Shown here in pieces: positions 11,785-53,536 of a stretch of 64,000 nucleotides of DNA. The stretch's first letter is position 1, and the number at the start of each line of letters is the position of its first letter. The notes below the pieces were generated by a model. It saw nothing but the letters and a program-made list of their open reading frames with translations, searched no databases and was not told the origin of the DNA. Source of the stretch: Minisyncoccota bacterium (GTDB lineage Bacteria > Patescibacteriota > Minisyncoccia > Phycocordibacterales > UBA5272). The stretch is from positions 627,521-691,520 of the forward strand of contig JBAZJW010000001.1 of assembly GCA_041651055.1 (NCBI GenBank), written 5' to 3'. Made by a program: the position numbers and the translations under genes.

Positions 11785-11850
11785 AAGGGTGCATGCACAA
11801 CAAAAAGGTTGCGCGGCACCCTTTTTGTTTTTACATGGTACACTTTTTAT

Positions 11851-21861: not shown

Positions 21862-22422
21862 ATGGCTAAAACAACAGCAATAAAAAGTATTAAAGAAGTA
21901 GAGAAGGAAGCATTCGAAACCCTTGCAAAGGAATTTGGATACAAGAACAAAATGGCTGCACCTCATCTTGTGAAGGTTACTATTTCTGTTGCGACAGGAT
22001 CAGCAATGAAGCGTGACAAGAAGTTCAATGATCTCGTTATGGATCGTCTTATGAAAATCACAGGACAGAAAGCGACTGTACGTAAAGCAAAGATGTCTGT
22101 GGCGTCATTTAAGACACGTGAAGGGGATCCAATCGGTGTCGCAGTAACACTTCGTGGTGCTCGTATGTTCGGATTCTTGGACAAGGTATTAAATGTATCA
22201 CTTCCACGTACAAAGGACTTCCGTGGTCTCAACCGTACATCGGTGGACGCTATTGGAAACATGACATTCGGTATCAAGGAACACACTATTTTCCCAGAAA
22301 TTCACGATGAAGAATTGAAGGATGTGTTCGGTATGGCTATTACAATGGGGACGACAGCTAAGACAAAAGAAGAGGCGACTAAGTTTTTCGAATTGATCGG
22401 CATCCCTTTCAAGAAACAATAA
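21862..22422 (+). CDS. rplE: 50S ribosomal protein L5
   Basis: ...GFKNKMAAPHLVKVTISV...DFRGL...GIKEHTIFPEI. Confidence 0.95.
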   Translation: MAKTTAIKSIKEVEKEAFETLAKEFGYKNKMAAPHLVKVTISVATGSAMKRDKKFNDLVMDRLMKITGQKATVRKAKMSVASFKTREGDPIGVAVTLRGARMFGFLDKVLNVSLPRTKDFRGLNRTSVDAIGNMTFGIKEHTIFPEIHDEELKDVFGMAITMGTTAKTKEEATKFFELIGIPFKKQ

Positions 22423-22423
22423 T

Positions 22424-22500
22424 TTACTTCATCTACTTCGTTGTAAAAGATTTTTTCTCCACGCAACGTACTATTCGTACGTCTTGGTCGAATTCTGACT
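22424..22500 (+). repeat. copy A of a ~90-nt hairpin repeat family (CTTCATCTACTTCGTTGT...CGTACTATTCGTACG...)
   Basis: Shares an exact 17-mer TTACTTCATCTACTT(C/T)GT and the core CGTACTAT-TGTACG with copy D inside the 23S gene; homologous to copies at 28588, 33602 and 59003. Confidence 0.7.
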
Positions 22501-22634: not shown

Positions 22635-24032
22635 ATGAAAACAGTAATTATCAAAGGCTTTGTAGCATTGGGGGTTTTGGGGATTATGGCTCAAACAGCA
22701 ACATCATCGTTTGCTGCGTATTTCAACACGGATTCAATTCCTCGTTGCGATGTTCAAATTATCAATACATTACAAGTTGGTTCTGAAAGTAAAGAGGTAT
22801 ACGTTCTTCAGTCGCTTCTTTCACGAGCAGGATACCTTTATGCAACACCAAATGGTTATTTTGGTTTTGCGACAAAGTCTGCCGTTAAAAGTTTCCAGCG
22901 AGACAACGGTGTATATGCCACCGGTTCTGTTGGTCCAATGACCTTAAATGCAATAAACGAGCGTCTTTGTGATGCTGATGTACGAGGAGACATGCTTTCA
23001 TACACTGGTTATGGATATTCTTCATACAACGGCTATTCATCAGGCGTTACGTACGTTGATGCTTTCGATCCATACGTTCGCGTCGTCTCTCCGACTCCTG
23101 CAGTCGCTACCGTATTCGGTAATCCTCCTACAACCACAACGCCTGGAACATTTACTCCTTCAGGAACGGTTCCGGTTTCTATTCCTGCACTCACAACAGG
23201 GACATATTCAAACACCACAAATTACTCAACAATTCCTGCTACCACAAATACACAGATTGCTAGTACGAATGTCATTTACAATCCTTCAGCTGGATACACC
23301 TACGGTATCGTTCCACAGTCTGGTGTATTGACTATTCTTACACCACTTGCAAACAGTGTTTACAATGAAGGTGACACTGTGACACTCTCATGGACAACAA
23401 GTAATCTTACGGTTACACAGTACCAGATTCTTCTTGAAAATAAATCAACAAATCAGTCAAAGGTTGTTGCTGTTACGTCGACAAAGAGCGCATCATTTGT
23501 TCTTACAAAAGAAGTTCTTGATGCCGTATGTTCTGGAGCGTGTGATAACAATAACGTCGGATCCTTCCGCATCGTTATTGCGACACCTATTGTTGATATA
23601 GCGGGAACTGTATCTACATTCCGTGCTGCTATTTCACCGATTACGATTAACCGTCCATATACGACATTTGCCAATGTAGGAATCACAGGAAGTAAAAACC
23701 CTGTTAATTCCGGAGAAGCTTTTAGACTCTATGTAAGTGTGCCAACACCTGTGTACAATTACACACCAAGTTACAATCAGTATTCATTCAAGATTCGTGC
23801 TGTATGCATCAACAATGTTCAGGTGAGTATTGCAGGTGTGCCATGTGGTCAGGATTTTACAATGCCTGTCACATCAGCATATTTCCAGCAAGAAATTCCT
23901 GTTATGATGACGAACACAACATGGTATCGTCAGAATATTTCCTTCGAAATTAATGCCTTCACTTCTACAGGGCAACTCGTAGGTACTGCAAGTACAACAG
24001 TAAGTGTTAACCCTGCACCATTTGCTTGGTAA
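22635..24032 (+). CDS. secreted protein with N-terminal PG-binding-like domain; inserted between rplE and rpsN
   Basis: Signal peptide MKTVIIKGFVALGVLGIMAQTATSSFA; C.VQIINTLQVGSESKEVYVLQSLLSRAGYLYATPNGYFGFATKSAVKSFQRDNGV...C. Confidence 0.75.
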   Translation: MKTVIIKGFVALGVLGIMAQTATSSFAAYFNTDSIPRCDVQIINTLQVGSESKEVYVLQSLLSRAGYLYATPNGYFGFATKSAVKSFQRDNGVYATGSVGPMTLNAINERLCDADVRGDMLSYTGYGYSSYNGYSSGVTYVDAFDPYVRVVSPTPAVATVFGNPPTTTTPGTFTPSGTVPVSIPALTTGTYSNTTNYSTIPATTNTQIASTNVIYNPSAGYTYGIVPQSGVLTILTPLANSVYNEGDTVTLSWTTSNLTVTQYQILLENKSTNQSKVVAVTSTKSASFVLTKEVLDAVCSGACDNNNVGSFRIVIATPIVDIAGTVSTFRAAISPITINRPYTTFANVGITGSKNPVNSGEAFRLYVSVPTPVYNYTPSYNQYSFKIRAVCINNVQVSIAGVPCGQDFTMPVTSAYFQQEIPVMMTNTTWYRQNISFEINAFTSTGQLVGTASTTVSVNPAPFAW

Positions 24033-27069: not shown

Positions 27070-27213
27070 TCAAAAAGTAATATTTTAGCGAATCACTTAG
27101 TTGTTACAGGATTTTTCTCAGTCGCTGCACTAAAATGTACGTCTTCTTCCAAAAATTCTTAGACTCCTTGTGTTTCATCTAAAATCTTCCTTTTTGCAAT
27201 ATAGAAATACAAC

Positions 27214-27250
27214 AAAAGAGCGGCCACGAAGTGGCCGCTCTTTTGTGTTT
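27214..27250 (+). terminator. rho-independent terminator between rplO and secY
   Basis: AAAAGAGCGGCCAC-GAA-GTGGCCGCTCTTTTGTGTTTT. Confidence 0.75.
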
Positions 27251-27269
27251 TGTGACAAGTCTTTATCTG

Positions 27270-27298
27270 TCGACCGGAGGCTGTTCCCGTGCTATAAT
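27270..27298 (+). promoter_or_regulatory. putative promoter TCGACC-17-TATAAT with TG extension (TGcTATAAT); the secY ATG lies ~10 nt downstream, so the transcript would be leaderless or nearly so
   Basis: TGCTATAATGG at 27290-27300; ATG at 27308. Confidence 0.45.
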
Positions 27299-27307
27299 GG
27301 TTCAATT

Positions 27308-28576
27308 ATGAAAACAATCAAGGCTATTTTCTCTGACCGTTCACTCCGAAACCGAATCTTTTTCGTTATCGGTATTCTTATTATTACTCGCATTCTTGCA
27401 GCTATTCCAATCCCAGGTATTGATGCATCGAACCTTGCTTCTTACCTTCAAAATCAAAACAGTAGTTTCCTTGGAATGCTAAACGTACTTTCAGGTGGAG
27501 GTATCGCTACACTTTCTATCGTGATGCTCGGTGTCGGTCCATACATTACCGCATCGATTATTATGCAGCTTATGACGGTGCTTTCTCCTCGCCTTAAGGA
27601 GATGTATCAAGAAGAAGGGGATGCGGGACGTCGTCGTTTCGTACAATACGGAAGACTTATCTCACTTCCTTTCGCAGTGCTTCAGGGGTTTGCTTTGATT
27701 ACGCTTCTTGTTCGTCAAAATGTCATTCCTGCACTTTCTATAGAAAGTATGACAACAAATATTATTATTGTGACGGCTGGAACCATGCTCATGATGTGGC
27801 TCGGTGAACAGATTAATGAAAAAGGTATTGGAAATGGAGTATCTCTTATCATTTTCGCAGGTATCGTTGCAGCTCTTCCAAAGAGTGTTGGACAATTTTT
27901 CCTTGCATTTGATGTTTCTCAAATTCCAATGCTTGTTGGACTTCTCGTGCTATCACTCGTTGTGATTGCTGGTATTGTGTATGTAACAGAAGCAGAACGA
28001 CCAGTTCCTGTAACCTATGCTCGCCAGTCACGTGTCGGTGGAGCAGCAACGCTTACGTCTTCTACATATCTGCCACTTCGCCTCAACCAGGCTGGTGTGG
28101 TTCCTATTATTTTCGCGGTTTCAATTCTTTTATTCCCACAATTAATTGGTCAGCTTTTTGCGACATCGTCTCAAGCATCTCTTCAGGCTTTTGCACGAAC
28201 AATGAATGGTCTTCTTACGAATCAGTGGATTTATGGAGGTCTCTATTTCTTCCTCGTTGTATCGTTTACCTACTTCTATACAGCGGTGATGTTTGATCCA
28301 GATCAGACAGCTGAGAATCTTCAGAAGAACGGCGCGTTCATTCCAGGATTCCGCCCAGGCTCTGCTACTGCTGAATACATTGGATATGTGCTTGCTCGTG
28401 TGACACTCTTTGGTGCAGTGTTCCTTGGTCTTATTGCAGTGCTTCCAGTTATTATTCAAGGGTTAACAGGGCTTACTGCTATACAAGTTGGAGGTACATC
28501 ACTTTTGATTGCGGTGTCAGTGGTGCTTGATTTGATTAAGAAAATCGACGCTCAACTCTCTATGCGCGAGTACTAA
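27308..28576 (+). CDS. secY: preprotein translocase subunit SecY
   Basis: 10 TM helices; IIPIIFA-like motif (AGVVPIIFAVSILLFPQ) and other SecY signatures; start at MKTIKAIFSD. Confidence 0.93.
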   Translation: MKTIKAIFSDRSLRNRIFFVIGILIITRILAAIPIPGIDASNLASYLQNQNSSFLGMLNVLSGGGIATLSIVMLGVGPYITASIIMQLMTVLSPRLKEMYQEEGDAGRRRFVQYGRLISLPFAVLQGFALITLLVRQNVIPALSIESMTTNIIIVTAGTMLMMWLGEQINEKGIGNGVSLIIFAGIVAALPKSVGQFFLAFDVSQIPMLVGLLVLSLVVIAGIVYVTEAERPVPVTYARQSRVGGAATLTSSTYLPLRLNQAGVVPIIFAVSILLFPQLIGQLFATSSQASLQAFARTMNGLLTNQWIYGGLYFFLVVSFTYFYTAVMFDPDQTAENLQKNGAFIPGFRPGSATAEYIGYVLARVTLFGAVFLGLIAVLPVIIQGLTGLTAIQVGGTSLLIAVSVVLDLIKKIDAQLSMREY

Positions 28577-28587
28577 CTAAGCTATTT

Positions 28588-28672
28588 GCGAACTGCTTTG
28601 TTACGGAGCCTCGCGTGCTCGTCACCGTACTAGTAAGTACGACTCCTCGCACGCACTCCGTGCCTCGCATTT
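28588..28672 (+). repeat. copy E of the ~90-nt hairpin repeat family
   Basis: CTTTGTTACGGAGCCTCGCGTGC...CCGTACTAGTAAGTACGAC...GCACGCACTCCGT: outer stem complementary but with a sequence different from copies B-D; conserved inner CGTAC..GTACG hairpin. Confidence 0.6.
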
Positions 28673-28700
28673 CATCAAATATCTTAGTTTAGTAATATAG

Positions 28701-28730
28701 CAAAACCGCCCTTTGGGCGGTTTTGCTTTC
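28701..28730 (+). terminator. rho-independent terminator
   Basis: AAAACCGCCC-TTT-GGGCGGTTTTGCTTTC. Confidence 0.7.
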
Positions 28731-28759
28731 ATTGGAAGAGGTGTATACTTAAGATTATT

Positions 28760-29290
28760 ATGGAACCAGAACCAAGACCGGCGCATCAAGAAAAATCAGT
28801 AAACAGATTAGAGCCAATGGAGGCGAAGAAGATAAGAGACGCAAGAAGTCGTATTTCCCATACTTATGAAACCGTTGGTTCATCTGAAGAAGATTTAGAA
28901 AAATTAACAACAGAAGAAAAGAATGTTTTTTATGAAGCAGAACTAACAGCTGCTCAAGCTGATTTAAAGTCACTCAAAGAATTTCAGGATTTCTACGTTA
29001 AAACACTTAACTATTTACCGGCAGATGATAAGAATTCTTTGCTGGCATTTGAAGAGAACCTAAAACACGGGTTATTAGATACACAAAGGAAGTGGATAGT
29101 TTCTTATCCGGAGGGAGATTTACAGGAAATGAAAGATGGTGTCGACGAAGAGATTGAGACTATTTGTAAAAACCCTTCTCAAATAAGAGCTCGTCTATTT
29201 GATAAAATAGAAGCGTATACATTTTCAGTTGATTCAATATCAAGAAGAATTGAAACGATAGAAGCTAGTCTAAAAGGTTTAAGAGGTTAA
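28760..29290 (+). CDS. hypothetical acidic protein inserted between secY and adk
   Basis: 176-aa ORF, helical/charged composition; no domain recognised. Confidence 0.5.
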   Translation: MEPEPRPAHQEKSVNRLEPMEAKKIRDARSRISHTYETVGSSEEDLEKLTTEEKNVFYEAELTAAQADLKSLKEFQDFYVKTLNYLPADDKNSLLAFEENLKHGLLDTQRKWIVSYPEGDLQEMKDGVDEEIETICKNPSQIRARLFDKIEAYTFSVDSISRRIETIEASLKGLRG

Positions 29291-29306
29291 TAAAGTAATT
29301 TCATAA

Positions 29307-29338
29307 CAAAAGCCGCCCCGTACGGGGCGGCTTTTTCT
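29307..29338 (+). terminator. rho-independent terminator
   Basis: AAAAGCCGCCCCG-TAC-GGGGCGGCTTTTTCTT. Confidence 0.75.
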
Positions 29339-29353
29339 TAATTTTGTGATAAG

Positions 29354-29977
29354 ATGGACAAACATATGGAAAAAAAGTTTTACATCATCATGGGGAGGTC
29401 AGGTGGAGGGAAAGGGACTCAGGCAGAACTTCTTAAGACTTACTTGGAAAGTAAGGGTGCTGAGAATGTTCTTCATGTGACCACAGGGGGAGCTTTTCGT
29501 GAATTTATTAAAGGGGAAGGTTTTGTTTCTAAACAAGCCAGAGAAGTTAATAATGCAGGAGGTCTTCAGCCGGAATTTTTGGCGATCTGGAATTGGACTA
29601 ATATTTTTATTAATTCCGTACAAGAAAACACGACAGTGATTTTGGATGGAGCCCCTCGAAAAGTAATTGAGATGAATGCCATGCATGCGGTTATTCCATT
29701 CTTAGGATATAGTAAGCCAATAGTTATCTATATTGAAGTTGGACGTGCATGGGCAAAAGATAGATTGAATTATCGTCAAGCGCAAAGTGAAGAAAAGCGC
29801 GCCGACACAAGTTCAGACGAGGAAATTGAAAAAAGACTCTCTCTCTTTGATGAAGATATTATTCCTTGTATAGAAAAGTTTGTTGAAGATCCTCGTTATA
29901 CGTACATTCATGTAAACGGTGAGCAAACAGTGGAAGAAGTACAAGCTGAACTGGTTGCAAAATTAAACCTTGCATAA
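29354..29977 (+). CDS. adk: adenylate kinase (divergent)
   Basis: P-loop GRSGGGKGTQAELL and DGAPR motif aligned to Adk GAPGAGKGTQA / DGFPR; spc-operon position. Confidence 0.7.
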   Translation: MDKHMEKKFYIIMGRSGGGKGTQAELLKTYLESKGAENVLHVTTGGAFREFIKGEGFVSKQAREVNNAGGLQPEFLAIWNWTNIFINSVQENTTVILDGAPRKVIEMNAMHAVIPFLGYSKPIVIYIEVGRAWAKDRLNYRQAQSEEKRADTSSDEEIEKRLSLFDEDIIPCIEKFVEDPRYTYIHVNGEQTVEEVQAELVAKLNLA

Positions 29978-29994
29978 GTGTGTAGTAAAAAAAT

Positions 29995-30762
29995 ATGAAA
30001 TACGATATCAAATTAAAAAATGAAAAGGACATAGAAAGCTTACGTGAAAGTGGTAAGCGTCTTTCGTCTGTTCTTCAAGCGGTAGCCAAAGAAGTAAAAC
30101 CGGGAGTAACTACGGGGTACCTGAATGATTTCGTATACAAAATGATTACTGACATGGGGGACAAGCCAGCTTTTCTTAATTACAAACCATTTGGCGCGTC
30201 GTATGCGTACCCTGGGAGTATTTGTATTTCTGTGAATGACGAAGTCGTACATGGTATTGGTGGGGATCGTGTGCTTAAAGAAGGAGATATTGTGGGTTTA
30301 GATGGAGGTGTGACACACAAAGGTATGATTTCTGACGCGGCCATTACGGTTCCAGTTGGTAAAATATCTGCCGAAGATGAAGAATTGTTACGCGTGACTA
30401 AGGCTGCGCTTATGGCCGGCATCAAAGCTGCTGTATGTGGTAAGTACGTGAATGATATTTCAAAAGCAATTGAAAAATCTATTCCAAAAAAGTACGGTGT
30501 TGTGAAGATTCTTTCAGGTCATGGTGTTGGCTACAAGGTTCATGAAGAGCCGTACGTGCCGAACTTCGACGATGGTGTAAAAGGTCCGAAACTTGTCCCT
30601 GGGCTCGTACTTGCGCTTGAGCCAATGGTAAATCTTGGTACCGACGAAGTGTATCTTGCAGATGATGGCTACACATTCATTACGAAGGATCATAAGAAAT
30701 CAGCGCACTTTGAGCATTCTATTTTGATTACAGAAAACGGACCAGAAATACTAACTAGTTAG
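29995..30762 (+). CDS. map: methionine aminopeptidase type I
   Basis: VVHGIGGDRVLKEGDIVGLDGG...HGVGYKVHEEP...ALEPM metal-ligand pattern. Confidence 0.9.
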   Translation: MKYDIKLKNEKDIESLRESGKRLSSVLQAVAKEVKPGVTTGYLNDFVYKMITDMGDKPAFLNYKPFGASYAYPGSICISVNDEVVHGIGGDRVLKEGDIVGLDGGVTHKGMISDAAITVPVGKISAEDEELLRVTKAALMAGIKAAVCGKYVNDISKAIEKSIPKKYGVVKILSGHGVGYKVHEEPYVPNFDDGVKGPKLVPGLVLALEPMVNLGTDEVYLADDGYTFITKDHKKSAHFEHSILITENGPEILTS

Positions 30763-30792
30763 GAGATAGTAGTTAGGAGTTAGGGGGGATAT

Positions 30793-30823
30793 AAAGAGCG
30801 GCGCCCATAGCGCCGCTCTTTAT
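30793..30823 (+). terminator. rho-independent terminator
   Basis: AAAGAGCGGCGCC-CATA-GCGCCGCTCTTTATG. Confidence 0.7.
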
Positions 30824-30870
30824 GTTCCTGTCCACTATCAACTCTAAACTAAAAACTGTAAACTGTATGT

Positions 30871-33591
30871 ATGAACACTCCGTTTACTACCCCCGAAGAA
30901 GAAATCAGTTTTCTTCGCTCACAAATTAAAGATAAAGTAGAAAAGGCAAAAGGCTTCGAAGGTCGCTTCACCGAGAAAGATCATGCACACGAAGTGGTAC
31001 GTGATTATCGCGAACTTCCTTTAGAAAAAGTAGTGGCACCGATAGCACAGGTTACAGCAGGTGAAACACATCGACTTCTCGAATGGCTCACTCCGCGAGA
31101 TACGGATGCGCAAGTACAAATGCTTTCACAGGTTATGGCAGACAAAGGAATAAAGAATGCATTTGTTATGGCAGAAAAGATGAATGATCCGCAGCTCGAA
31201 GATGACTTCGAGCGCTTTGTTGTGCAGTATCTTGTTTCAGGACATGAAATAAGAAACAATCTTTCCAAAGATGTATGGAAAGCTCTTCATATGAAGTTGT
31301 TTGAAATTGTGCTTCCAGATGCACAAGAAGGGCAAGGAAAACAGGCCAAAGAAATGATGGCGCTAATGGAACAATGGTATGCCTCGATGCAAGCGCTTGC
31401 GAGTGATGTGCTCAACAAAGAGAAGAATTATTATTCACTAGAGCTTGCGGTGGCGAATGGTTCCACGACAGCATCATTTTATTGTGCGGTGCATATCGAT
31501 TACGCGGCACTGTTTGAAAAGGTGGTACTCGGTGTATTTCCACAGGCCCAAGTCAGAGAACAGAAAGATGACTATAATATTTTCCATGCTCATGCGATCA
31601 CAGCAGCATCATACGCGACACATAGCACGCATCCGGCACTTCCTATCAAGACCTATGAGACCATGGAGGCTGATCCGATGGCACTTATCATTTCTTCCTT
31701 CACACGAATTGTAAAAGAAAATGAAGGACTTGCTCTCCAGGTGTTGGTGCGTCCAGCGGGGGATGTTTTCGCGAAGCGTTTTGGTGAAATGTTGGAAGAC
31801 TTACGTAAAGGGGAAACGCTCAAGCGTGTACTCGACAAGCAAAGCATACTTAAAGAGTCTCTCCATATTCTTGGTTTGATGTTTGAATCAACGAAAACAA
31901 AAGAAGAGATTGAAAAGAAAAAAGCAGAAGGAACGACCTTCGTGGATGAAAGCGCCCTCAAGCATGTACAAACAAAACTTTCAAAGACAATCATCGAAAC
32001 AAATATTCGTATTGTTGCTTCGGCGACGAGTTTGGTGCGGGCACAAGCGATACGCACCGATCTCGAGGCTGCTTTCTCACAGTTCACAGAAGTCGGAGGA
32101 AACAGCGTCATCTGGAAAGAAGTAGAGGGGCGTAAGCAGAAGGCGATGCTTCACCGCTTTTCATATCGTTTATGGAATGAAGACGAAAGTTATCCACTTA
32201 ACCTTGCTGAAATTGCTTCTGTTTTTCATTTCCCTTCACAGTCAAAAGATGTGGCCAATGTTCGTTCTTCCTCAGCCGCTACTGCACAAGCTCCATCTGA
32301 TATGCCTGCCGATGGAATTGTTCTCGGAATCAATAAATCCAGAGGTCAAGAACAAACTATACATTTTGGACGTGAAGATCGTATGCGTCACATGTATGTT
32401 ATCGGTCAGACGGGTACAGGAAAGACCGTGTTCATGAAGAATTTGATTATTCAGGATATAAAAAACGGCGACGGTTGTTGTTTCATTGACCCGCACGGAA
32501 ATGATATCCAAGATATTTTGGCGAACATTCCTCCAGAACGAGCGCAAGACGTTATTTATTTTGACCCAGCATATATGGCACGTCCAATGGGGCTCAACAT
32601 GCTTGAGTATGATAGGAATTACCCAGAACAAAAGACATTCGTCGTGAATGAACTCTTGGGAATATTCGATAAGCTGTTCGACATGCGAGCAACAGGGGGA
32701 CCAGGATTCGAGCAGTACTTTCGTAACGCGACATTACTCGTGATGGAGCATCCTGAAAGTGGTAACACGCTCCTTGATATTTCTCGTGTCTTTTCAGATA
32801 AAGATTATCGTGACTACAAACTTTCGAAATGTAAGAATCCACTCCTTGTACAGTTTTGGCAAAATGCAGAGAAGACAACAGGTGATCAAGGGCTTCAAAA
32901 TTGGACTCAGTACGTAAATAGTAAATTTGATGTCTTTATGTCAAACGACATTATGCGGCCAATTATTGCTCAAGAAAAGAGCGCCTTTAATTTCCGCGAC
33001 ATAATGGATAGTAAGAAAATCTTTTTGGTGAATCTTTCAAAGGGTCGTCTCGGGGATAAGAATGCAAGTTTACTCGGTCTTATTATTGTGGGAAAGTTTT
33101 CACAGGCAGCCCTCTCTCGCGTGGATATGTTCGGGAAACCGATGAATGATTTTTATTTGTACATTGATGAATTCCACAACGTCACCACAAACGCAATCGC
33201 CACCATTCTCTCTGAAGCCAGAAAATATCGTCTCTCACTTACTATCGCGCATCAGTACATTGGACAGTTGGAAGAAAGTATTAAGGGAGCAGTGTTTGGT
33301 AACGTGGGTACTATGGCTATATTCCGTGTTGGAACAGATGATGCGAAGTATTTGGAAACACAGTTTACGCCAACATTCACGTCAAACGATATTATGAAAA
33401 TAGAAAACTACCATGCGTATCTCAAGATGCTTGTCCGAGGTGAACCAAAAAAGCCTTTTGATATTGTCGCCCTTCCACCCCAAATAGGGGATGTATCACG
33501 TATCGATTCATTGAAAGAGTTGAGTTATTTGACGTACGGGCGACCGGCGGAAGAAGTTAACTCAGAGATTATGAAAAAATACTCTCTTTAA
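30871..33591 (+). CDS. large P-loop NTPase of the TraD/TraG/VirD4-HerA-FtsK-like superfamily with a ~480-aa N-terminal domain of unknown function
   Basis: Walker A MYVIGQTGTGKTVFMKN; Walker B LYIDEFHN; ARKYRLSLTIAHQYIGQL motif typical of TraG-D_C / HerA-like ATPases; no N-terminal TM segments. Confidence 0.6.
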   Translation: MNTPFTTPEEEISFLRSQIKDKVEKAKGFEGRFTEKDHAHEVVRDYRELPLEKVVAPIAQVTAGETHRLLEWLTPRDTDAQVQMLSQVMADKGIKNAFVMAEKMNDPQLEDDFERFVVQYLVSGHEIRNNLSKDVWKALHMKLFEIVLPDAQEGQGKQAKEMMALMEQWYASMQALASDVLNKEKNYYSLELAVANGSTTASFYCAVHIDYAALFEKVVLGVFPQAQVREQKDDYNIFHAHAITAASYATHSTHPALPIKTYETMEADPMALIISSFTRIVKENEGLALQVLVRPAGDVFAKRFGEMLEDLRKGETLKRVLDKQSILKESLHILGLMFESTKTKEEIEKKKAEGTTFVDESALKHVQTKLSKTIIETNIRIVASATSLVRAQAIRTDLEAAFSQFTEVGGNSVIWKEVEGRKQKAMLHRFSYRLWNEDESYPLNLAEIASVFHFPSQSKDVANVRSSSAATAQAPSDMPADGIVLGINKSRGQEQTIHFGREDRMRHMYVIGQTGTGKTVFMKNLIIQDIKNGDGCCFIDPHGNDIQDILANIPPERAQDVIYFDPAYMARPMGLNMLEYDRNYPEQKTFVVNELLGIFDKLFDMRATGGPGFEQYFRNATLLVMEHPESGNTLLDISRVFSDKDYRDYKLSKCKNPLLVQFWQNAEKTTGDQGLQNWTQYVNSKFDVFMSNDIMRPIIAQEKSAFNFRDIMDSKKIFLVNLSKGRLGDKNASLLGLIIVGKFSQAALSRVDMFGKPMNDFYLYIDEFHNVTTNAIATILSEARKYRLSLTIAHQYIGQLEESIKGAVFGNVGTMAIFRVGTDDAKYLETQFTPTFTSNDIMKIENYHAYLKMLVRGEPKKPFDIVALPPQIGDVSRIDSLKELSYLTYGRPAEEVNSEIMKKYSL

Positions 33592-33601
33592 GTCATAAAT
33601 C

Positions 33602-33705
33602 ACTTCACCCGCTTTGTTGTGAAAGATTTTTTCTCCCGCAATGTACTATTCGTACATTTTGGTCGTAAAAATCTTTCACGCCTCGCGCTTGAAGCAATTT
33701 CTGAC
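33602..33705 (+). repeat. copy B of the ~90-nt hairpin repeat family
   Basis: GCTTTGTTGTGAAAGATTTTTTctcccgcaatGTACTATTCGTACattttggtcgtAAAAATCTTTCAC: 13-bp outer stem plus conserved inner hairpin. Confidence 0.7.
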
Positions 33706-33740
33706 TTAAAGTAACCTCGTCTGATTGAAATAAGTATTCA

Positions 33741-33872
33741 CATACTCCTCACCTAACCCTTTATGTCAACTCTCGCAGGCCGACGGGCCGAGAGTGAACT
33801 GCTTTTTCAGCAGAAAAAGACAGTGTTTGATATAAAGGGTTGAGGTGAAAAAAGAGAAGAAATTTTGAATCT
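33741..33872 (+). ncRNA. copy 1 of a ~130-170-nt multi-stem repeat; candidate structured RNA
   Basis: CATACTCCTCACCTAACCCTTTATGTCAA ... internal hairpin CTCTCGCAGGCCGACGGGCCGAGAG ... CTGCTTTTTCAGCAG ... TTTGATATAAAGGGTTGAGGTGA closes a ~23-bp long-range stem; near-identical copy at 40563. Confidence 0.5.
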
Positions 33873-33948
33873 GGAAAAAGAAATTTGTAATTAAGCCCCC
33901 GTATTCACTACCCAGCATGCAATACCTGCTATATACTAAATAGTAATT

Positions 33949-34122
33949 ATGGATGCTGCTTTAATTATTTTAGCCCTCACTCTCATTGCCTACGTACCCC
34001 TCGCAGCCGTTTTACTTTTCGTGTGGTGGAAGTACGGTCAAGGTGAAGTGAAAGTTTCTATTGCTCGTGTGACGTTTCTCGCAGGATCATTTGCGTTAAT
34101 CGGTTACATGCTCATGCTATGA
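33949..34122 (+). CDS. small membrane protein (57 aa; YdbS-like partner?), overlaps the next gene by ATGA
   Basis: MDAALIILALTLIAYVPLAAVLLFVWWKYGQGEVKVSIARVTFLAGSFALIGYMLML; not in the ORF track (<60 aa); 4-nt overlap with the 34119 start. Confidence 0.5.
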   Translation: MDAALIILALTLIAYVPLAAVLLFVWWKYGQGEVKVSIARVTFLAGSFALIGYMLML

Positions 34123-34664
34123 CATTTGAACAAGAACACATGCTCGAAGAAGGAGAGGTGATACTCGAAAAAGTCCGTAAGCACTGGATTGTGTATGTGA
34201 ATGATTTTCTTATTCATTTTTTTGGATGTGCTATTTTTAGTATCGCAGCGATGTATTTGTCTTCAAAGGGTTCGCTTGTCTTTATTAGTACTTCGACGGG
34301 TTCTTATGGAGCGATGATTCTCATTATGTTCGTGCTCATTTTCTGGACAAGTTTTTTCTTCACATGGACGAAGAATTTTTTTGATGTTTGGTATGTAACG
34401 AATCAGCACATTATCGCTATTAATCAGAAGCAGATTTTGGAAAGAGAAGATGCTCATATGGAATTAAATCGCATTCAAGATATTTCTTTTGAAAAGAATG
34501 GATTTTTACAGACCATGCTCGGATATGGTGCACTTAAGGTTCAGAGTGCTGGGGCAGAGGTTGAATTCACCATAGAAGACGTGCGTGATGTAGAAGGCTC
34601 GGCTCATCGTATTATGGAATTGCGAGATGAAGCACAGAAACAGGTTACAGGTGATAGTTTATAG
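34119..34664 (+). CDS. membrane protein with bacterial PH domain (bPH_2 / YdbT-like)
   Basis: N-terminal two TM helices, then a ~100-aa segment ...VTNQHIIAINQKQILEREDAHMELNRIQDISFEKNGFLQTMLGYGALKVQSAG... resembling DUF304/bPH_2. Confidence 0.55.
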   Translation: MTFEQEHMLEEGEVILEKVRKHWIVYVNDFLIHFFGCAIFSIAAMYLSSKGSLVFISTSTGSYGAMILIMFVLIFWTSFFFTWTKNFFDVWYVTNQHIIAINQKQILEREDAHMELNRIQDISFEKNGFLQTMLGYGALKVQSAGAEVEFTIEDVRDVEGSAHRIMELRDEAQKQVTGDSL

Positions 34665-34670
34665 ACTACA

Positions 34671-34755
34671 GCAATACAAAAGCACGACACCTTCGGTGTC
34701 GTGCTTTTGTATTGCTGTTCAGATTCGGTGTCGTGCTTTTGTATTGCTGTTCAGA
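34671..34755. terminator. bidirectional terminator (21-bp perfect stem) between the bPH gene (+) and efp (-), with a 32-nt tandem duplication of its 3' arm
   Basis: gcaatacaaaagcacgacacc-ttcg-ggtgtcgtgcttttgtattgc; ttcggtgtcgtgcttttgtattgctgttcaga repeated at 34692-34723 and 34724-34755. Confidence 0.7.
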
Positions 34756-34924
34756 AAAATCAAGAAACTGTTTCAGCTACGAGGAGCCTAGAAATTTTTC
34801 AAAGAAGTCGTACACGCTAGTACGGCGACTGCGAAAAATTTCGTAGTTCGAGACGGCTTGGCCGCGAAGATATCATAAGCTAACAAGCTTGTGACAAAAA
34901 GTAGATGGAATAGTTTATTGGTTT

Positions 34925-35506
34925 TTACTTAGAACGTTCGAAATACTCACCAGTCTCTGTATTCACAATAATCTTATCTCCCACCTCGATAAAGAATGGT
35001 GTTGTAATCTGTGCGCCTGTTTCGATGGTCACCAACTTTCCTCCACCTGAAGCTGTGTTTCCTTTAATTGCAGGAGGGGCATCTTTTACTTCAAATGTCA
35101 TCTTGATAGGAAGTGTAATACCGATAACACGCTCTTCATCGTCATATTCAAACACCTTCGTATCGACAAGTGTATTATCTTTGAGATACTTCACACCATC
35201 ACCAATAACATCTGCATCGATTTCGAATCGTTCTGCACGATTGTTTGGATCACAGAACCAGTATTCACCTTTATTTGCGAAAAGGAAAAGTGCTTCTCGT
35301 TTTGATATGTCAGCTTCTTCTGCTGTGTCTGATGCATGGAATGAACTTGAAATAACCTTTCCATTGAGAAGGTTGCGCATTTTTACTTGGTTTTGTGGCT
35401 TACGCTTTTGTGTACGTGCCACATGAGATTCCAAAATTTCAAACGGTTGACCATCTACAAGAATGAACTTGCGAGGTTTGATTTCATCATAGTCGAGTGT
35501 TGCCAT
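34925..35506 (-). CDS. efp: elongation factor P
   Basis: MATLDYDEIKPRKFILVDGQPFEIL...FCDPNNRAERFEID...KGNTASGGGKLVTIETGAQI. Confidence 0.9.
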   Translation of the reverse strand: MATLDYDEIKPRKFILVDGQPFEILESHVARTQKRKPQNQVKMRNLLNGKVISSSFHASDTAEEADISKREALFLFANKGEYWFCDPNNRAERFEIDADVIGDGVKYLKDNTLVDTKVFEYDDEERVIGITLPIKMTFEVKDAPPAIKGNTASGGGKLVTIETGAQITTPFFIEVGDKIIVNTETGEYFERSK

Positions 35507-38010: not shown

Positions 38011-40305
38011 TTAAGACCGGAATATATCATCTGTACTCGTGTCATGAGTATCATTCGGAGAGGCTGCTTCTCCTTGTGGTTGTCCAGAAAGTATTTCACG
38101 ATATCTTTCACCGGGACGAGCTCCACCGATTACATTGTAATGTTCAAGGTCATTGATGATGCGCGCAGCCTTGTTGTATCCCCAACGGAATGCTGTCTGA
38201 AGTGATGATGTCGATGCTTTACCAGTAGAAATAACATAATCTTTCGCACTCATATAATCTTCGTCGTCTTCTGGTTCCTTTCCTACATTTCCTTCCACAC
38301 CAGATTCTCCACTATGCATGATGCCCACTTTTACTTTCGCGATATCGATAACATCAGGAATAAAATCAAGGTGAGCTTTCTTGATATGTGTCACAACGTC
38401 TTTGATTTCTTCTGGTGTGATGAATGGCGCCTGAATACGTACGAGGCGAGGGTTATCAGACGCCATGTACAGCATGTCTCCATTTCCAAGAAGATCTTCT
38501 GCACCAGATGCGTCGAGAATGGTACGCGAGTCGATCTGTGATGTCGTCTTAAGCGCGATACGAGATGGAATGTTTGCCTTAATCGTTCCCGTAATAACTT
38601 TTACATCTGGTCTCTGTGTCGCCAAGATAAGATGAATACCAGCGGCACGACCTTTCTGGGTGAGTGATGTAATCAGTGGAGAAATTTCCTTTGGATACGA
38701 AAGCATGAAGTCATTGTATTCGTCGAAGATAATGACGATGTATGGAAGTTTCGGAGGAAGTCCGATGAGCTCATCTCCGATCTTTCCTTTCTTTCGTGCT
38801 TTTTCAAGTGCAGGGGATAATATTTTTTTATTGTAATCACTCACGTTCACCTGACCATTTTCGGAAAGGATTTCATAACGTCTCTCCATTTCCTGAATCG
38901 CCCAGTTGAGCGCCTTGATAGCACCTTTCGGTTCTTTAATAATAGGAGTGTAAAGATGAGGAAGATTACTGTACACCGTGAATTCTACACGCTTTGGATC
39001 AAGTACGATAAGTTTAAGGTCATACGGTGAGTTCTTGTAGAGAAGTGACATTACAAGGTTATGCAGTGTGACAGACTTTCCAGCACGCGTCGCACCGGCA
39101 ACGAGAAGGTGAGGCATCTTTTCGAGGTCTCCGAATATTGGCTTACCGATAATACTTTTTCCGATAGCAAGAGCGAGTGGTCCTGCCTCTTTGAACTCAT
39201 CGAGCTCAAGCATTGAACGAAGTCCGAGCATAGACTTTCGTTCATTTGGGATTTCGATACCAACGAGTGTCTTGCCAGGAATCGGAGCTTCGATACGCAA
39301 AAATTCGCTACCAAGTTCCATAGCGAGGTTATCATGAAGGGCTACAACCTTTGAAAGGTTCACGCCTTGTGCAGGTTTGAGGGTAAATTGTGTTACCGTT
39401 GGTCCGACAGTCACTTCCCCCATCTCTACGTGGATACGGAAATGTTCAAGTGTACGCTGAATGGTTGTCATCTTCGCACGACTGTCTCCGGCACCGGATT
39501 TTCCACTGTCTACATTAAGGAGCTCAAGTGGTGGTGGTACGAATTCTGGTGTGAGTATCACAGGTTTCGCCTTTACTTCTTTATGAAGGGTAAATGTTCC
39601 TGCCTCTTCTTCATCAAGTGGTGCGAGCTCACCAAACAATTCTTTTCGTAAATCGTCCGGCGTCTCTTCGAGTGGTTCTGGAAGAATATCATCGTAAGGA
39701 ACATCTTCTGTCATTTCTTCTATAAGTTCTGGCTCGTCATCGAAACTTCGTTCTTTACGTGCAAGAAGAAGCGCTCGTATTTGTGTGAAAGGATACATGA
39801 GGAGAGCAAGGAAAGGTGACAGTGACGGCTTACGTTCAAGGATGACGATACCACCAATAGCCGCGATGCCTCCCAAGAGCGCGATGCTCGGATAGAGTGC
39901 GAAGTATTTTACCAAAGGTGCGGTCACGAGTACGCCGAGCAATCCTCCAAACGATGGTCCGAAAAAGATAGTGCCGAGTCCTGCGACACCGAGAATGAGA
40001 AAGAGTGTTCCCGCTACACCCATGAATCGTAAGTCAGGCACTTCTTCTTTCCATAAATAGTACGCGACGTAGAGACAGAGGAGTGGTGTGAGATAAGAGA
40101 ATACACCGATGATTGAATCAATACCAGAGAAAAGTATTTCACCACCCTCACCACCGGCATGTACCATGGAGAATATGAGGAGCGCTGCGATCATCACGAA
40201 GATGACAGCGAGTACGCCGAGAATGGTTTCGGTGAGCACAGGATCTTTCACGCGACGTCTGCGTGTATGAATTACTCTATCGGTTGATGTTTCTTCTTTT
40301 GCCAT
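38011..40305 (-). CDS. ftsK: DNA translocase FtsK/SpoIIIE
   Basis: N-terminal TM helices; HLLVAGATRAGKSVTLHNLVMSLL Walker A; C-terminal gamma-like winged-helix domain. Confidence 0.92.
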   Translation of the reverse strand: MAKEETSTDRVIHTRRRRVKDPVLTETILGVLAVIFVMIAALLIFSMVHAGGEGGEILFSGIDSIIGVFSYLTPLLCLYVAYYLWKEEVPDLRFMGVAGTLFLILGVAGLGTIFFGPSFGGLLGVLVTAPLVKYFALYPSIALLGGIAAIGGIVILERKPSLSPFLALLMYPFTQIRALLLARKERSFDDEPELIEEMTEDVPYDDILPEPLEETPDDLRKELFGELAPLDEEEAGTFTLHKEVKAKPVILTPEFVPPPLELLNVDSGKSGAGDSRAKMTTIQRTLEHFRIHVEMGEVTVGPTVTQFTLKPAQGVNLSKVVALHDNLAMELGSEFLRIEAPIPGKTLVGIEIPNERKSMLGLRSMLELDEFKEAGPLALAIGKSIIGKPIFGDLEKMPHLLVAGATRAGKSVTLHNLVMSLLYKNSPYDLKLIVLDPKRVEFTVYSNLPHLYTPIIKEPKGAIKALNWAIQEMERRYEILSENGQVNVSDYNKKILSPALEKARKKGKIGDELIGLPPKLPYIVIIFDEYNDFMLSYPKEISPLITSLTQKGRAAGIHLILATQRPDVKVITGTIKANIPSRIALKTTSQIDSRTILDASGAEDLLGNGDMLYMASDNPRLVRIQAPFITPEEIKDVVTHIKKAHLDFIPDVIDIAKVKVGIMHSGESGVEGNVGKEPEDDEDYMSAKDYVISTGKASTSSLQTAFRWGYNKAARIINDLEHYNVIGGARPGERYREILSGQPQGEAASPNDTHDTSTDDIFRS

Positions 40306-40562
40306 AACAAGTAAAGGGGATTATGGTGTAAAGTATAGCAAAAGAAGGATTCTAAGATAAGGTATAACTCTATCTGTTGCTTTGACAAAAGCTTCTTCTT
40401 TAATTCTGACCCCTAACTCTTTTACTTTTTTCTTTTTCAAGTAACCCCTAAAACCAAACGATGTATTTTCTTGCTAGAAAATCATCTCACGCTCGCGCCG
40501 CCGCGCTGTGCGAGTTGGTTTGTAGGGGTTACTTGAGGATAGTGAATACGGATACGCATCCC

Positions 40563-40710
40563 CATACTCCTCACCTAACCCTTTATATCAACTCTCGGAA
40601 GACGGCGGTCTGAGAGTGAACTGCTTTTTCAGCAGAAAAAGACAGTGTTTGATATAAAGGGTTGAGGTGAAAAAGAAAAAAGAAACCTTGAATTTTATTC
40701 AAATCTGACT
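40563..40710 (+). ncRNA. copy 2 of the ~130-170-nt multi-stem repeat; candidate structured RNA
   Basis: CATACTCCTCACCTAACCCTTTATATCAACTCTCGGAAGACGGCGGTCTGAGAGTGAACTGCTTTTTCAGCAGAAAAAGACAGTGTTTGATATAAAGGGTTGAGGTGA: same outer sequence as 33741-33872, with the internal hairpin changed in a compensatory way. Confidence 0.5.
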
Positions 40711-42309: not shown

Positions 42310-45300
42310 ATGCGTAATTTCTCAATGAAGGCTGCTACATCAGTAGCTGTCCTCGGAGGTATCGTAGTTAGTGCAGTTTCTGCATCAGCTGCTCTCAACC
42401 TTCCAACACAGAGCTGTTCATATTCGTTCAACACGAATATGAAGCTTGGCTCACGTGGCACAAGTGTTATGGATCTTCAAAAGGTTCTTAACATGTACCC
42501 ACAAACACAGGTATCTGCATCAGGTGCTGGATCTCCAGGAATGGAATCTTCATACTTCGGTGCTGCTACTCGTACAGCTGTTAACAAGTTTCAGGCTCTA
42601 CACCTTGTAGAACTTGGAATCTCAGCTCCTACAGGTAACGTGTTCGCAGGAACACGTGGTCTTCTAAATCAGGTTTGTGGTGGTTCAACAGGTAGTGTTT
42701 CAACACTTCCAGCTGGATGTACATCAACAGCAGGATTTAGTCCTGTAACAGGTGCATCATGTGCAACTGGTACAGTTACAAACCCAGGTACAGTAGTATC
42801 TGGTCCAGTTTCAGCAATGCTTGCAGGCTCACAGCCAACAGGTATGATCGTTTCTGGTCAGTCAGGTGCTCGTCTAGCAGACATCACATTCACTGGAAAC
42901 GGAACAGTTACATCTGTTCAGCTACAGCGTACTGGTGTTTCAGCAGACACAACAATTAACAATGTCTACCTATACGAAGGAAATACTCGAATCACTGATT
43001 CAGCTTCTGTAGTAACAGGTGGTTACATCAACTTCAACGCTTCTAATGGTCTCTTCACTGTTAATGGCTCACGTACAATCACTGTACGCGCTGACATTGC
43101 ATCAAGTATCACTGGACAGTCAGTTGGTGTAAAGCTTAACAGTGTAACTGCAGGTGGTTCCGTATCTACATTCACAAATGTAAACGGTAATCAGCTAACA
43201 GTTGCTTCTGTTGATACATCTCATGTTAACTTTGCAGCTCTTACACAGTCTGCACTTACTCCAGCAGCTGGAACTTCAAACTACATCGTTTGGTCAGGCT
43301 CAGCTTCAGTAAGTACACGTAGTGTTAACTTCAAGGCAGCAACATTCAAGTTCGTTGGTTCAGCTCCAGTTGACGCTATCCAGAATCTTAACCTCTTCGT
43401 AGATGGTTCTAAGGTTTCAGGTCCAGTGGCAATCAACGCTGCAAACAACAACAAGGTGACGTTTGACCTAGGAGCTACTCCTTACCTTCTAACAACAGGA
43501 ACACACACAATCGAAGTTCGTGGTGATATCGTAAAAGGATCATTCCGTACAGCGACTTTCTCAGTTGAGAATGTGTCAGACCTTATGTTCGAAGATTCAA
43601 ACCTAGCTGGTGTTAACGTTTCAGCTACAATCCCTAACTCAAGTACAGCGTTCACACAGAGTGCTGCTACTTATGGAACAATTACTGTACAGAAAGGTTC
43701 TGTAACAGTAAACGTTGACCCAGCTTTCACTGCATCAAAGGTGACAGGTGGAGCAACTAACGTTCCAGTAGGACAGTTCACAATGAAGGCATACGGTGAA
43801 GATGTTAAGGTTTCAACACTCCGTGTTGCTATCGCTACATCATCAAATGCATCATTGACTACGTTCAACAACGTATCATTGTATGCAAACGGTGGCCAGA
43901 TTGGAACTTCACAGAACTTCACAGTGGCTGCTCGTCAGTCACCTGGATACCTTACATTCACTCTAGGTTCATCACTTATTATCCCAGCTGGTACAACTGT
44001 AACTCTTACAGTTAAAGCTGATATCGTAGACAGCTCATCTGCTGCATACACATCAGGTACAATGACTGCGACAATCAGTGGTCCTACAGGAAATGCACAG
44101 GGACAGAGTTCATACGAAGCTGTTGACGTTGCAACAGGTGGTGTTGCCGGTAACGTTCTTACTATCTCATCAGGTGTAGGAACATTCGGACGCACATCAG
44201 GATTCACAGCAGTAACTGTGGCTCCTAACACATCAGCTGCAGTGAAGATTGCATCATTCACACTACAGGCAAACTCAGCGGAAGCTGTACGTGTCTCAAG
44301 TGTAAGTATCAATCCAACTATTGCTAACGGTGATATCACTAACTATAGTAATTTCACTCTAAAGAATGGTTCAACAAACCTTGCTAATCCAATCGGAAAC
44401 CCAGCAGCAGGAACATCAACATTCTCACTTCTTAATGACATTACAATTCCAGCAAGTGGAACAATGACATTCGATGTGTACGCTAATGTTGGTGGAGACG
44501 TTAATGCAACAATTACAACAGATATGGCCGTAACAAGTCGTGGCGTTGTAAGTAACACATCAACAGTTTCATCAGCTGCAGGAACAGGGGCAACAGTTAC
44601 ATCAGCACTTTCTACTCTTGCTGCTTCAACACTAACGTCATCATCACCAGTAGCACAGTATGTGGTTGGTGGTTCAACATTCGGTGTTGCAACATACAAG
44701 ATCAAGACAGCTGTTGCTGGAACAGTAGCAAATGTTACTGATCTTAGTTTCGGAACTACAGGAGCAGATGCTATCCAGAGCATCACTGTAACTTGGGCGG
44801 GAGGAACATCAGTATCTACACCAGTCGCTGGTTCTGGCGATACTGCTACTACAACCGTTTCAGGTCTTAGTATCCCAGTTACATCAAACGGTACAGACGT
44901 AACTGTTGTTGCTAAGTTCTCAGGATTCCAGAATACCGTTGCCGCAGGTAATCTTTCTGCAAGTATTGCCACAGTTAAGGTTACTCTAAGTAACGTTAAG
45001 GCAACTGCTGGAACAGGGTCACCTATCGAAGACGCTACTCAGGTTCCTTCAAACACAATGTCACTTGTTTCTTCAAAGCCTATCGTAGAAATGAGTGCTG
45101 GTAACACAGATACACTCGTTCTTGGTTCTGAAAACAAGGTTGGTGAATTCAAAGTAACTGCAGATCTAAATGGAAGTATCTCTGTCTCAACGACATCACT
45201 TTCAGTTTCAACTGTAGGTATCACAAACCCAGAATTCACTGCATATCGTATTGCTGATGGAAACACAACAATCACGAGCGGTGTGTACGTATCTGCATCT

Positions 45301-51228: not shown

Positions 51229-51274
<46 letters not shown>

Positions 51275-53303: not shown

Positions 53304-53536
<233 letters not shown>

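Follow-up and report, generated by a model that had tools for sequence, protein, structure and literature searches.

A coupling protein-like ATPase fused to its small partner and without a predicted membrane anchor, encoded in the ribosomal operon of a Paceibacteria clade

The window (the whole stretch of 64,000 nucleotides that was analyzed) carries at the tail of its ribosomal spc operon a gene for a 906-aa ATPase. On balance, this protein is probably a translocase derived from a conjugative coupling protein (T4CP), which has no predicted membrane anchor, is fused to a small partner and has been separated from conjugation; the membrane protein pair encoded downstream is not a defining partner of it.

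Results

The ATPase gene and its setting

The gene, its catalytic motifs and the genes preceding it are located as follows.

27170 to 30762, plus strand: secY, an unknown ORF of 176 aa, adk and map (tail of the ribosomal spc operon), with the ATPase gene next
30871 to 33591, plus strand: DUF8128/T4CP-like ATPase gene, 906 aa
32308 to 33480, plus strand: RecA-like nucleotide-binding domain of the VirD4/TrwB/VirB4/HerA type, aa ~480-870
32404 to 32427, plus strand: Walker A, GQTGTGKT, aa 512-519
33157 to 33177, plus strand: Walker B, LYIDEFH, aa 763-769

The 906-aa product is identical to protein WC444_03485 of an NCBI MAG (Candidatus Paceibacterota bacterium; 775-kb contig). The first-pass annotation had described three ORFs, the Walker motifs, an ATGA overlap and a structured spacer in this region, and on re-examination all their coordinates were borne out. 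Its description of the protein as a TraD/HerA-like ATPase also holds: this is a P-loop translocase of the TraD/VirD4/HerA superfamily with intact catalytic motifs. The nucleotide-binding domain is of the VirD4/TrwB type, has both Walker A and B and includes a putative all-helical insert (aa ~587-715); a RKYRLSLTIAHQYIGQL motif is present at aa 784-800. Residues G512, G515, K518, D766, E767, R784, K785, Q795 and Q799 are invariant in 38 relatives with 30-52% identity.

The canonical alpha-operon genes had been reported missing after map, and the ATPase indeed stands in their place. None of infA, rpsM, rpsK, rpsD, rpoA and rplQ was detectable anywhere in the window with approximate E. coli queries. 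A promoter and terminator scan of 30600-35000 gave promoter-like sites at background frequency and nothing that bears on co-transcription. PADLOC returned only a weak similarity to mad8/HerA/DndH-type ATPases and no defence context. Three large window paralogues at 688-11063, considered as T4SS parts, were rejected as PG_binding_1 wall proteins; one more at 42310-45537, considered in the same role, has no Pfam match and is 52% identical to one of these three. In 12 of 82 related loci large proteins and DUF5663 were seen beside the ATPase. As a lead to substrates they were dropped: no Pfam domains or signal peptides were found in them, and a DUF5663 gene is missing from the window.

The N-terminal half consists of two units

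Upstream of the nucleotide-binding domain two further units were delimited.

30871 to 31263, plus strand: fused partner domain, helical, aa 1-131; homologous to the ~130-165-aa protein encoded upstream of TM-anchored members
31291 to 32250, plus strand: DUF8128 (PF26449), alpha/beta domain, aa ~141-460

This half of the protein had been presented as a novel 480-aa domain. It is instead composed of a fused small-partner domain followed by Pfam DUF8128. Nor is it devoid of recognisable domains, as had been stated, since the identical database protein has a precomputed PF26449.1 match, found also in nearly all relatives. DUF8128 is already catalogued in Pfam, and the N-terminal fused partner domain is a separate unit. 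Alignment of aa 1-131 with the standalone partner by hhalign extended end to end over 130 columns (probability 97.3%, E 2.5e-11), and an AF2 model obtained with a diverse alignment presents this region as a helical bundle with pLDDT of 71-88. That model superseded a first one, built from 51 close homologues, in which pLDDT was 58 and DUF8128 was not resolved. The ALHMKLFEIVLP motif in DUF8128 of the window protein corresponds in position to SLNxxLLxVxxP, which in the short forms follows directly after the TM helix.

Long and short forms of the family

The family comprises 4,944 representatives (50% identity) at E<=1e-30, and its best 80 GTDB loci all originate from Patescibacteria MAGs (80/80). 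A typical member has one N-terminal TM helix, then DUF8128, then a nucleotide-binding domain of the VirD4/TrwB type into which an all-helical region is putatively inserted. Directly upstream of the ATPase in 22 short-form loci there is a gene of 126-168 aa; a small (~140 aa) partner gene normally precedes the ATPase in this family. Kyte-Doolittle windows detected the single N-terminal TM helix in short-form relatives, and by this crude method no hydrophobic segment of the window ATPase reached the TM threshold.

All fused forms (41/41) fell into one clade of the NJ tree, and all TM forms (32/32) lay outside it. Linkage to map was seen only inside the fused-form clade, and the secY-adk-map position is restricted to these fused, TM-less proteins. 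Thus in one Paceibacteria clade, which includes the window genome, the partner gene has joined the 5′ end of the ATPase gene and displaced the TM helix, and the fused product of the window has no predicted membrane anchor. Comparison with the relative L001 gave identities of 77% for the ATPase, 79% for Map, 76% for SecY and 77% for FtsK; the ATPase is conserved to about the same extent as these three proteins. It is vertically inherited.

Position among related ATPases

The window ATPase scored far below the cut-offs of all NCBIfam TraD/VirD4 equivalogs, the best being TIGR03743 with 50.6 bits against 366. VirB4/TrwK/TcpF proteins also count among the nearest known systems. The VirB4 model TIGR00929 gave 17.7 bits against 643 and there was no AAA_10 match; hhalign with monoderm VirB4 returned a probability of 2%, and the structural match was confined to the ATPase core. 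DUF87, indicative of HerA, gave 22.7 bits against 23.2, and FtsK_SpoIIIE 16.2 bits against 24.

The proximity of recA and ftsK could hint at a chromosomal DNA motor of the HerA/FtsK kind, acting in repair or segregation. These two genes, however, are on the opposite strand and are close by only in the closest clade. Sequence profiles place TrwB (6e-7) and DotL above HerA (3e-3), a complete FtsK is already encoded in the window (38011-40305) and no HerA-type partner stood out among the ORFs scanned next to the ATPase. Such a motor is clearly improbable.

Distant relatives on plasmids and in phages

By hhalign, aa 143-884 of the window ATPase aligned with a homologue encoded by a Bacillus subtilis plasmid (probability 100%, E 4e-54). 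The plasmid operon has the order family protein, Replic_Relax, TcpC, TcpE, AAA_10/VirB4-like. The homologue occupies the coupling-protein slot of this Tcp/ICEBs1-type conjugation operon, adjoins the relaxase and is distinct from the VirB4 of the operon. Distant members are also present in SPO1-like Bacillus phages (SP8, CP-51, JL, phage G gp156): phrog_5156 matched the window ATPase with E 1.7e-83, and the JL homologue gave a TM-score of 0.58 over 848 columns in a BFVD fold search. Because relatives hold the place of the coupling protein in a Bacillus conjugation operon and also occur in SPO1-like phages, the lineage can be traced to monoderm conjugative coupling proteins. The T4CP of pLS20 was rejected, as it belongs to another VirD4 type with two TM helices.

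Relatives on plasmids and in phages could also mean that the window gene is left over from an integrated conjugative element or a prophage. However, these relatives are only 21-26% identical or match the ATPase domain alone. The gene belongs to a conserved housekeeping block, its G+C equals that of the surroundings, and the protein is 75-87% identical across hundreds of relatives; no integrase, relaxase or T4SS gene was found nearby. An origin of this kind is extremely improbable.

Separation from conjugation genes

Relaxase, VirB4 and T4SS genes were absent among the window ORFs scanned, and no relaxase, VirB4 or other T4SS gene was found within 6 kb of the ATPase in 82 related loci. Because neither relaxase nor VirB4 is nearby, the ATPase appears to be uncoupled from conjugation.

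Alternatively, it could be the true coupling protein of a chromosomal Patescibacteria T4SS encoded in trans, and feed DNA or protein to a VirB4/VirB6 channel near the replication origin. The homologue in the T4CP slot of the Bacillus operon is consistent with this, as are the frequent distance of T4CP genes from virB4, the Southlakia T4SS cluster, which has no recognisable coupling protein, and the occurrence of VirB4 in 2,417 Patescibacteria genomes, about 80% of the total (PMC12102498). Yet the same survey counted 5,713 VirD4-like homologues in 2,918 of 3,035 genomes, i.e. about 96% of Patescibacteria keep, despite tiny genomes, roughly two of them, only 148 being near virB4 and most lying far from any T4SS. 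T4CP homologues thus occur in more genomes than VirB4. Moreover, the T4CP homologue of Southlakia is reported to be non-essential and the T4SS genes essential, the TM anchor that places T4CPs at the channel is lost in the window protein, and the 82 loci have no T4SS genes within the 6 kb mentioned above. We regard service to a T4SS in trans as rather unlikely.

The spacer and the downstream membrane pair

The region after the ATPase gene contains the following elements.

33586 to 33711, no strand assigned: repeat element A, a long hairpin of ~126 nt beginning at the ATPase stop codon; partial copy at 22419-22490
33730 to 33870, plus strand: repeat element B, structured and branched, with another copy in the window (40552-40693; 89% over 142 nt)
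33949 to 34122, plus strand: 57-aa protein with two TM helices; no family match, clade-restricted
34119 to 34664, plus strand: 181-aa YdbS-like protein with two TM helices and bPH_2; coupled to the 57-aa gene, clade-restricted
34668 to 34755, no strand assigned: perfect hairpin of 24 bp where the convergent bPH and efp genes meet

The 357-nt spacer between the ATPase and the 57-aa gene is strongly structured (z = -8.3), and in the inner hairpin of repeat element B two base pairs differ between the copies by compensatory changes. A hairpin repeat and a 130-nt structured element had been described here between the ATPase and the membrane pair. Both are present and structured. They are dispersed repeats, further copies of which lie elsewhere in the window; relatives do not have them, and the spacer consists of such repeats that were inserted in the window genome. 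An Rfam search of the spacer gave spurious miRNA-hairpin matches only, all under gathering scores. The 3′ arm of the hairpin at 34668-34755 carries a perfect 32-nt tandem duplication.

The 57-aa and 181-aa genes are translationally coupled through an ATGA overlap, which was verified at 34119-34122. The 181-aa protein scored 24.9 bits with PF03703 (bPH_2; cut-off 22), and this domain is preceded by two hydrophobic helices (aa 24-42, aa 53-71). The proposed likeness to a YdbS/YdbT pair is therefore half correct: the 181-aa protein has the YdbS layout of two TM helices and bPH, but the 57-aa protein is not YdbT-like, and no large multi-bPH YdbT partner was found in place of this two-TM peptide.

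It had been proposed that the ATPase works with the 57-aa and bPH proteins in a single system, a translocation machine or a membrane-associated NTPase, in which the pair would anchor the soluble ATPase. Among close relatives 2-3 nt separate the ATPase stop from the start of the 57-aa gene, which together with the overlap with the bPH gene implies co-transcription, and the pair is probably co-transcribed with the ATPase there. In addition, the ATPase of this clade has no TM helix of its own, and the 165 bPH homologues that could be detected all belong to one and the same clade and lie beside the ATPase in the loci and contigs examined. A conserved three-gene module was nevertheless not recovered. 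The pair is restricted to relatives whose ATPase is at least 76% identical, and is always within a syntenic block of more than 10 genes, secY-adk-map-ATPase-small-bPH-efp-recA-ftsK, to which the linkage belongs. The clade of fused, TM-less ATPases is far wider: in L006 (53% ATPase identity) efp follows the ATPase directly and the pair is absent, in 14 other long-form loci ndk follows directly, and an HMM of the bPH protein matched nothing in the other 78 loci. The pair has also diverged faster than the ATPase (identities of 56-62% and 77%, respectively), and insertions separate the two in the window genome and in L004. We infer that the pair is a lineage-specific downstream neighbour and not a defining partner of the ATPase; the three-protein system is improbable.

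Discussion

Like TrwB and VirD4, the ATPase would most likely be a ring-shaped motor that is driven by ATP and translocates or recruits substrates. Its putative helical insert, DUF8128 and the partner domain may provide substrate or docking surfaces, and the protein might dock in trans to a chromosomal T4SS encoded elsewhere or work alone on DNA or protein. We tentatively suggest, as a possibility, that Paceibacteria exapted a conjugative coupling protein as a core T4SS-independent motor, soluble, partner-fused and co-expressed with the SecY/ribosomal operon, for housekeeping movement or remodelling of DNA or protein, e.g. handling scavenged nucleic acid or loading an envelope machine. If true, this would be the first derivative of a coupling protein to serve as essential machinery of the cell without belonging to a secretion system. 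A possible exaptation of Patescibacteria T4CP homologues was also raised by the authors of the survey (PMC12102498).

The locus gives an anatomy to the puzzle of orphan T4CPs: it defines the architecture TM-DUF8128-T4CP motor and points to a dedicated small partner gene. In one clade the partner was fused, the anchor lost and the gene relocated to the ribosomal/Sec operon, where its rate of evolution is as low as that of SecY or FtsK. Interaction with the partner, localisation to the membrane or the soluble phase, and any need for VirB4 are testable handles for distinguishing continued service to the essential CPR T4SS from a new core role. For DUF8128 itself, Bacillus Tcp-type plasmids and SPO1-like phages offer genetically tractable systems.

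Comparison with known systems

The T4CPs (VirD4/TrwB/TraD/TraG, DotL, Cag-beta) have a TM domain and linkage to relaxase or T4SS genes, both of which are missing from the window protein. Its ATPase domain is preceded instead by DUF8128 of ~320 aa and the fused partner domain, and its gene is a conserved chromosomal one in a ribosomal operon rather than a gene of a mobile element. The DUF8128 proteins of Bacillus Tcp-type plasmids (annotated as 'DUF87 domain-containing protein') and SPO1-like phages share the DUF8128+ATPase architecture over ~700 residues; they are, however, encoded by mobile elements (on the plasmid, with relaxase and VirB4) and do not have the fused N-terminal partner domain. 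As for YdbS/YdbT of Bacillus, the 181-aa protein shares with YdbS a two-TM hairpin followed by bPH_2, whereas YdbT is a triple-bPH protein of ~490 aa and its counterpart in the window is the 57-aa two-TM peptide.

The closest parallel is with the orphan T4CP homologues (Quinonero-Coronel et al. 2025, PMC12102498), which like the window ATPase are VirD4-like, near-universal in the phylum and located apart from virB4. That survey describes neither how the domains are arranged nor the small partner gene, and it reports neither the fusion with loss of the TM helix nor the ribosomal-operon site. The window ATPase is very probably a member of this orphan set.

Organization of the ATPase locus

All three reading frames of the first-pass annotation were found exactly in place, as was the ATGA overlap joining the second to the third:

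30871-33591, + strand: ATPase, 906 aa
33949-34122, + strand: small membrane protein, 57 aa
34119-34664, + strand: bPH-domain protein, 181 aa

The ATPase has an identical counterpart, hypothetical protein WC444_03485, encoded on a 775-kb contig of a Candidatus Paceibacterota MAG. In the window, secY, a 176-aa ORF, adk and map precede the ATPase gene; efp, recA, an ORF of 117 aa and ftsK, complete, follow on the opposite strand. The reported lack of alpha-operon genes after map also held: none of infA, rpsM, rpsK, rpsD, rpoA and rplQ could be detected in the whole window with approximate E. coli queries. The 176-aa ORF (28760-29290) has no family match; in the related locus L001 adk directly follows secY. 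A perfect 24-bp hairpin (34668-34755) separates bPH from the convergent efp gene; its 3′ arm is perfectly tandem-duplicated (32 nt), resulting in two alternative hairpins.

The motor domain

The catalytic motifs are intact. Walker A (GQTGTGKT, residues 512-519), Walker B (LYIDEFH, residues 763-769) and the RKYRLSLTIAHQYIGQL motif are present as originally described, and the key residues of all three do not vary among 38 aligned relatives (30-52% identity). The Pfam families T4SS-DNA_transf, TrwB_AAD_bind and TraG-D_C each scored weakly above the gathering score, and the best NCBIfam matches were TraD and VirD4-like families, far under the equivalog cut-offs. When the family profile was compared with PDB sequences, TrwB ranked first (6e-7), followed by DotL (2e-5). 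An AlphaFold2 model built from a diverse alignment (mean pLDDT 82) matched TrwB in Foldseek with a TM score of ~0.63, normalised to TrwB, and a predicted all-helical insert (residues ~587-715) would occupy the position of the TrwB all-alpha domain. On the strength of these matches the motor belongs to the VirD4/VirB4/HerA clade, with coupling proteins as its nearest kin by sequence.

An N-terminal half in two parts

The N-terminal half had been described as a single novel 480-aa domain. Instead, residues ~141-460 are Pfam DUF8128 (PF26449), precomputed for the identical database protein and its relatives, and residues 1-131 form a helical, partner-like domain, which establishes the architecture. 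No mention of DUF8128 was found in the literature searched.

An exhaustive HMMER search of 1.84 billion representatives placed the start of the conserved family core at residues ~130-190. Members of 790-850 aa are devoid of the first ~130 residues and begin with one TM helix and then SLNxxLLxVxxP. Upstream of such short forms a same-strand gene of 126-168 aa was present in 22 loci, and 17 of the encoded proteins aligned end-to-end with a profile of the long-form N-termini (hhalign 97.3%, E 2.5e-11, 130 columns). In a neighbour-joining tree of the shared core, rooted on a Bacillus plasmid homologue and without bootstrap, all fused forms (41/41) fell in a single clade and all TM-anchored forms (32/32) outside it. 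Judged by these comparisons, the match to the small partners, the TM-anchored short forms and the single-clade tree establish the ATPase as a partner-ATPase fusion from which the membrane anchor was lost.

Five loci (L057, L061, L076, L080 and L082) carry a second, unrelated type of small partner directly 5′ of the ATPase (150-168 aa, motif ...WLKxIPGVNKFFLEQEAK), which substitutes for the first type in one subclade of TM-anchored members. Some family proteins (P0163-P0188) reach 1,200-2,000 aa, with very large C-terminal extensions past the ATPase.

The spacer and the membrane pair

The 357-nt spacer downstream of the ATPase folds very stably (z -8.3) and is occupied by two elements:

33586-33711: hairpin of ~126 nt; partial copy at 22419-22490
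33730-33870, + strand: branched element of ~140 nt; copy at 40552-40693 (+ strand, 89% identity)

The copies of the branched element differ by two compensatory pair changes in the inner hairpin (GGCC/GGCC vs AGAC/GTCT), and no Rfam family matches either element. Both elements are intergenic repeats of dispersed type that have inserted at this site, and no part of the ATPase system. The ~140-nt one may represent either a gene for a small RNA or an element of the MITE/REP kind.

The first-pass annotation further proposed that the ATPase and a YdbS/YdbT-like pair form a three-gene system. The 181-aa protein does resemble YdbS (two TM helices and bPH_2); the 57-aa peptide is unlike YdbT. In relatives just 2-3 nt separate the ATPase stop from the 57-aa gene, which makes their co-transcription likely in those genomes; in this genome the gap is 357 nt. 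The bPH protein has only 165 database relatives, and among the 120 matches listed (57-72% identity) several lie on contigs matching in size those with close ATPase homologues. Two comparatively divergent members of this set occupy the same syntenic block of >10 genes. By tblastn, clustering and HMM searches of the related loci, the 57-aa and bPH genes are confined to the window and three close loci, with ATPase identity of at least 76%. At 53% identity (L006) efp immediately follows the ATPase; a further 14 fused-clade loci have ndk in this position and then other housekeeping genes. With the pair confined to close relatives and replaced elsewhere, the linkage is recent synteny and not a conserved module; a three-gene system is very improbable.

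Chromosomal context

The order secY-adk-map often precedes the ATPase in the fused clade, and nowhere else (22 loci plus L086 and L087). Identity to L001 is at core-gene level (ATPase 77%, Map 79%, SecY 76%, FtsK 77%) and the G+C content of the ATPase gene is unremarkable. The housekeeping context is therefore established; the gene is vertically inherited and looks core-like, and we rejected a mobile-element remnant on the same three grounds.

In 12/82 related loci (including L083, L053, L060, L062, L035, L044, L059, L075, L067 and L039) the genes flanking the ATPase encode a DUF5663 protein of ~100 aa and a large E/K/A-rich protein (584-1,420 aa) with one internal hydrophobic segment and without Pfam domain or signal peptide, as at 2886-10493 of L083. 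This arrangement, which the window lacks, may represent an extended module.

No VirB4, TcpC, TcpE or relaxase gene was found within 6 kb of the ATPase in 82 related loci, or among the window ORFs scanned. In agreement, a 2025 survey covering 3,035 genomes of Patescibacteria placed only 148 of 5,713 VirD4-like homologues (from 2,918 genomes) near virB4 and found VirB4 itself in 2,417 genomes (PMC12102498); we infer that these homologues include the DUF8128 family. The survey authors considered exaptation possible and reported the Southlakia homologue as non-essential (PMC12102498). The Southlakia T4SS cluster is without a recognisable coupling protein (PMC10633639). That the ATPase serves a T4SS in trans is rather unlikely; that it acts independently of one is a tentative reading, held at somewhat under even chances. 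The protein would probably assemble a TrwB-like ring and spend ATP on recruitment or translocation of a macromolecular substrate, with DUF8128 and the partner domain as a putative docking or regulatory module.

Other features of the window

At 4,243 nt the 23S rRNA gene (50734-54976) exceeds its model (2,925 nt) by ~1.3 kb of inserted introns or intervening sequences, and it contains several 110-136-aa ORFs; long insertions of this kind fit a CPR genome. Between the 23S and 5S genes Rfam matched a 103-nt tRNA (55209-55311), which may be intron-containing or otherwise atypical; ARAGORN found no tRNA in the window. Four large paralogues (1,017-1,191 aa; 688-4263, 4403-7456, 7602-11063 and 42310-45537) have termini ~70% identical. 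Three carry PG_binding_1 domains, as do smaller proteins at 11809-13023 and 22635-24032, the latter inserted within the ribosomal-protein gene cluster; the paralogue at 42310-45537 has no Pfam match.

Relation to known systems

The family comprises 4,944 representatives (50% identity) at E<=1e-30, and in GTDB species genomes the 80 best loci come without exception from Patescibacteria MAGs. Distant members keep the full DUF8128 and ATPase architecture in two settings, phages and Firmicutes plasmids; IMG/VR relatives mostly have the ATPase domain alone in common. SPO1-like Bacillus phages and phage G share 22-24% identity over residues ~200-902 (tblastn), phrog_5156 matches at E 1.7e-83, and a phage JL protein aligns with a TM score of 0.58 over 848 columns (BFVD). 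The homologue on a 27.5-kb Bacillus subtilis plasmid (hhalign 100%, E 4e-54, residues 143-884) heads an operon continuing with Replic_Relax (relaxase), TcpC, TcpE and an AAA_10 VirB4-like ATPase, which is the position of the coupling protein in conjugation systems of Tcp/ICEBs1 type. These data establish the ancestry of the ATPase in monoderm coupling proteins. We hold the identity and architecture assigned here to be very probably right.

Patescibacteria were already known to carry orphan T4CP homologues, and Pfam already listed the DUF8128 family. New are a defined architecture, a dedicated small partner and its apparent fusion in a single clade, where the TM helix was lost, together with relocation into the ribosomal operon and a link to Tcp-type plasmids of Bacillus and to SPO1-like phages.
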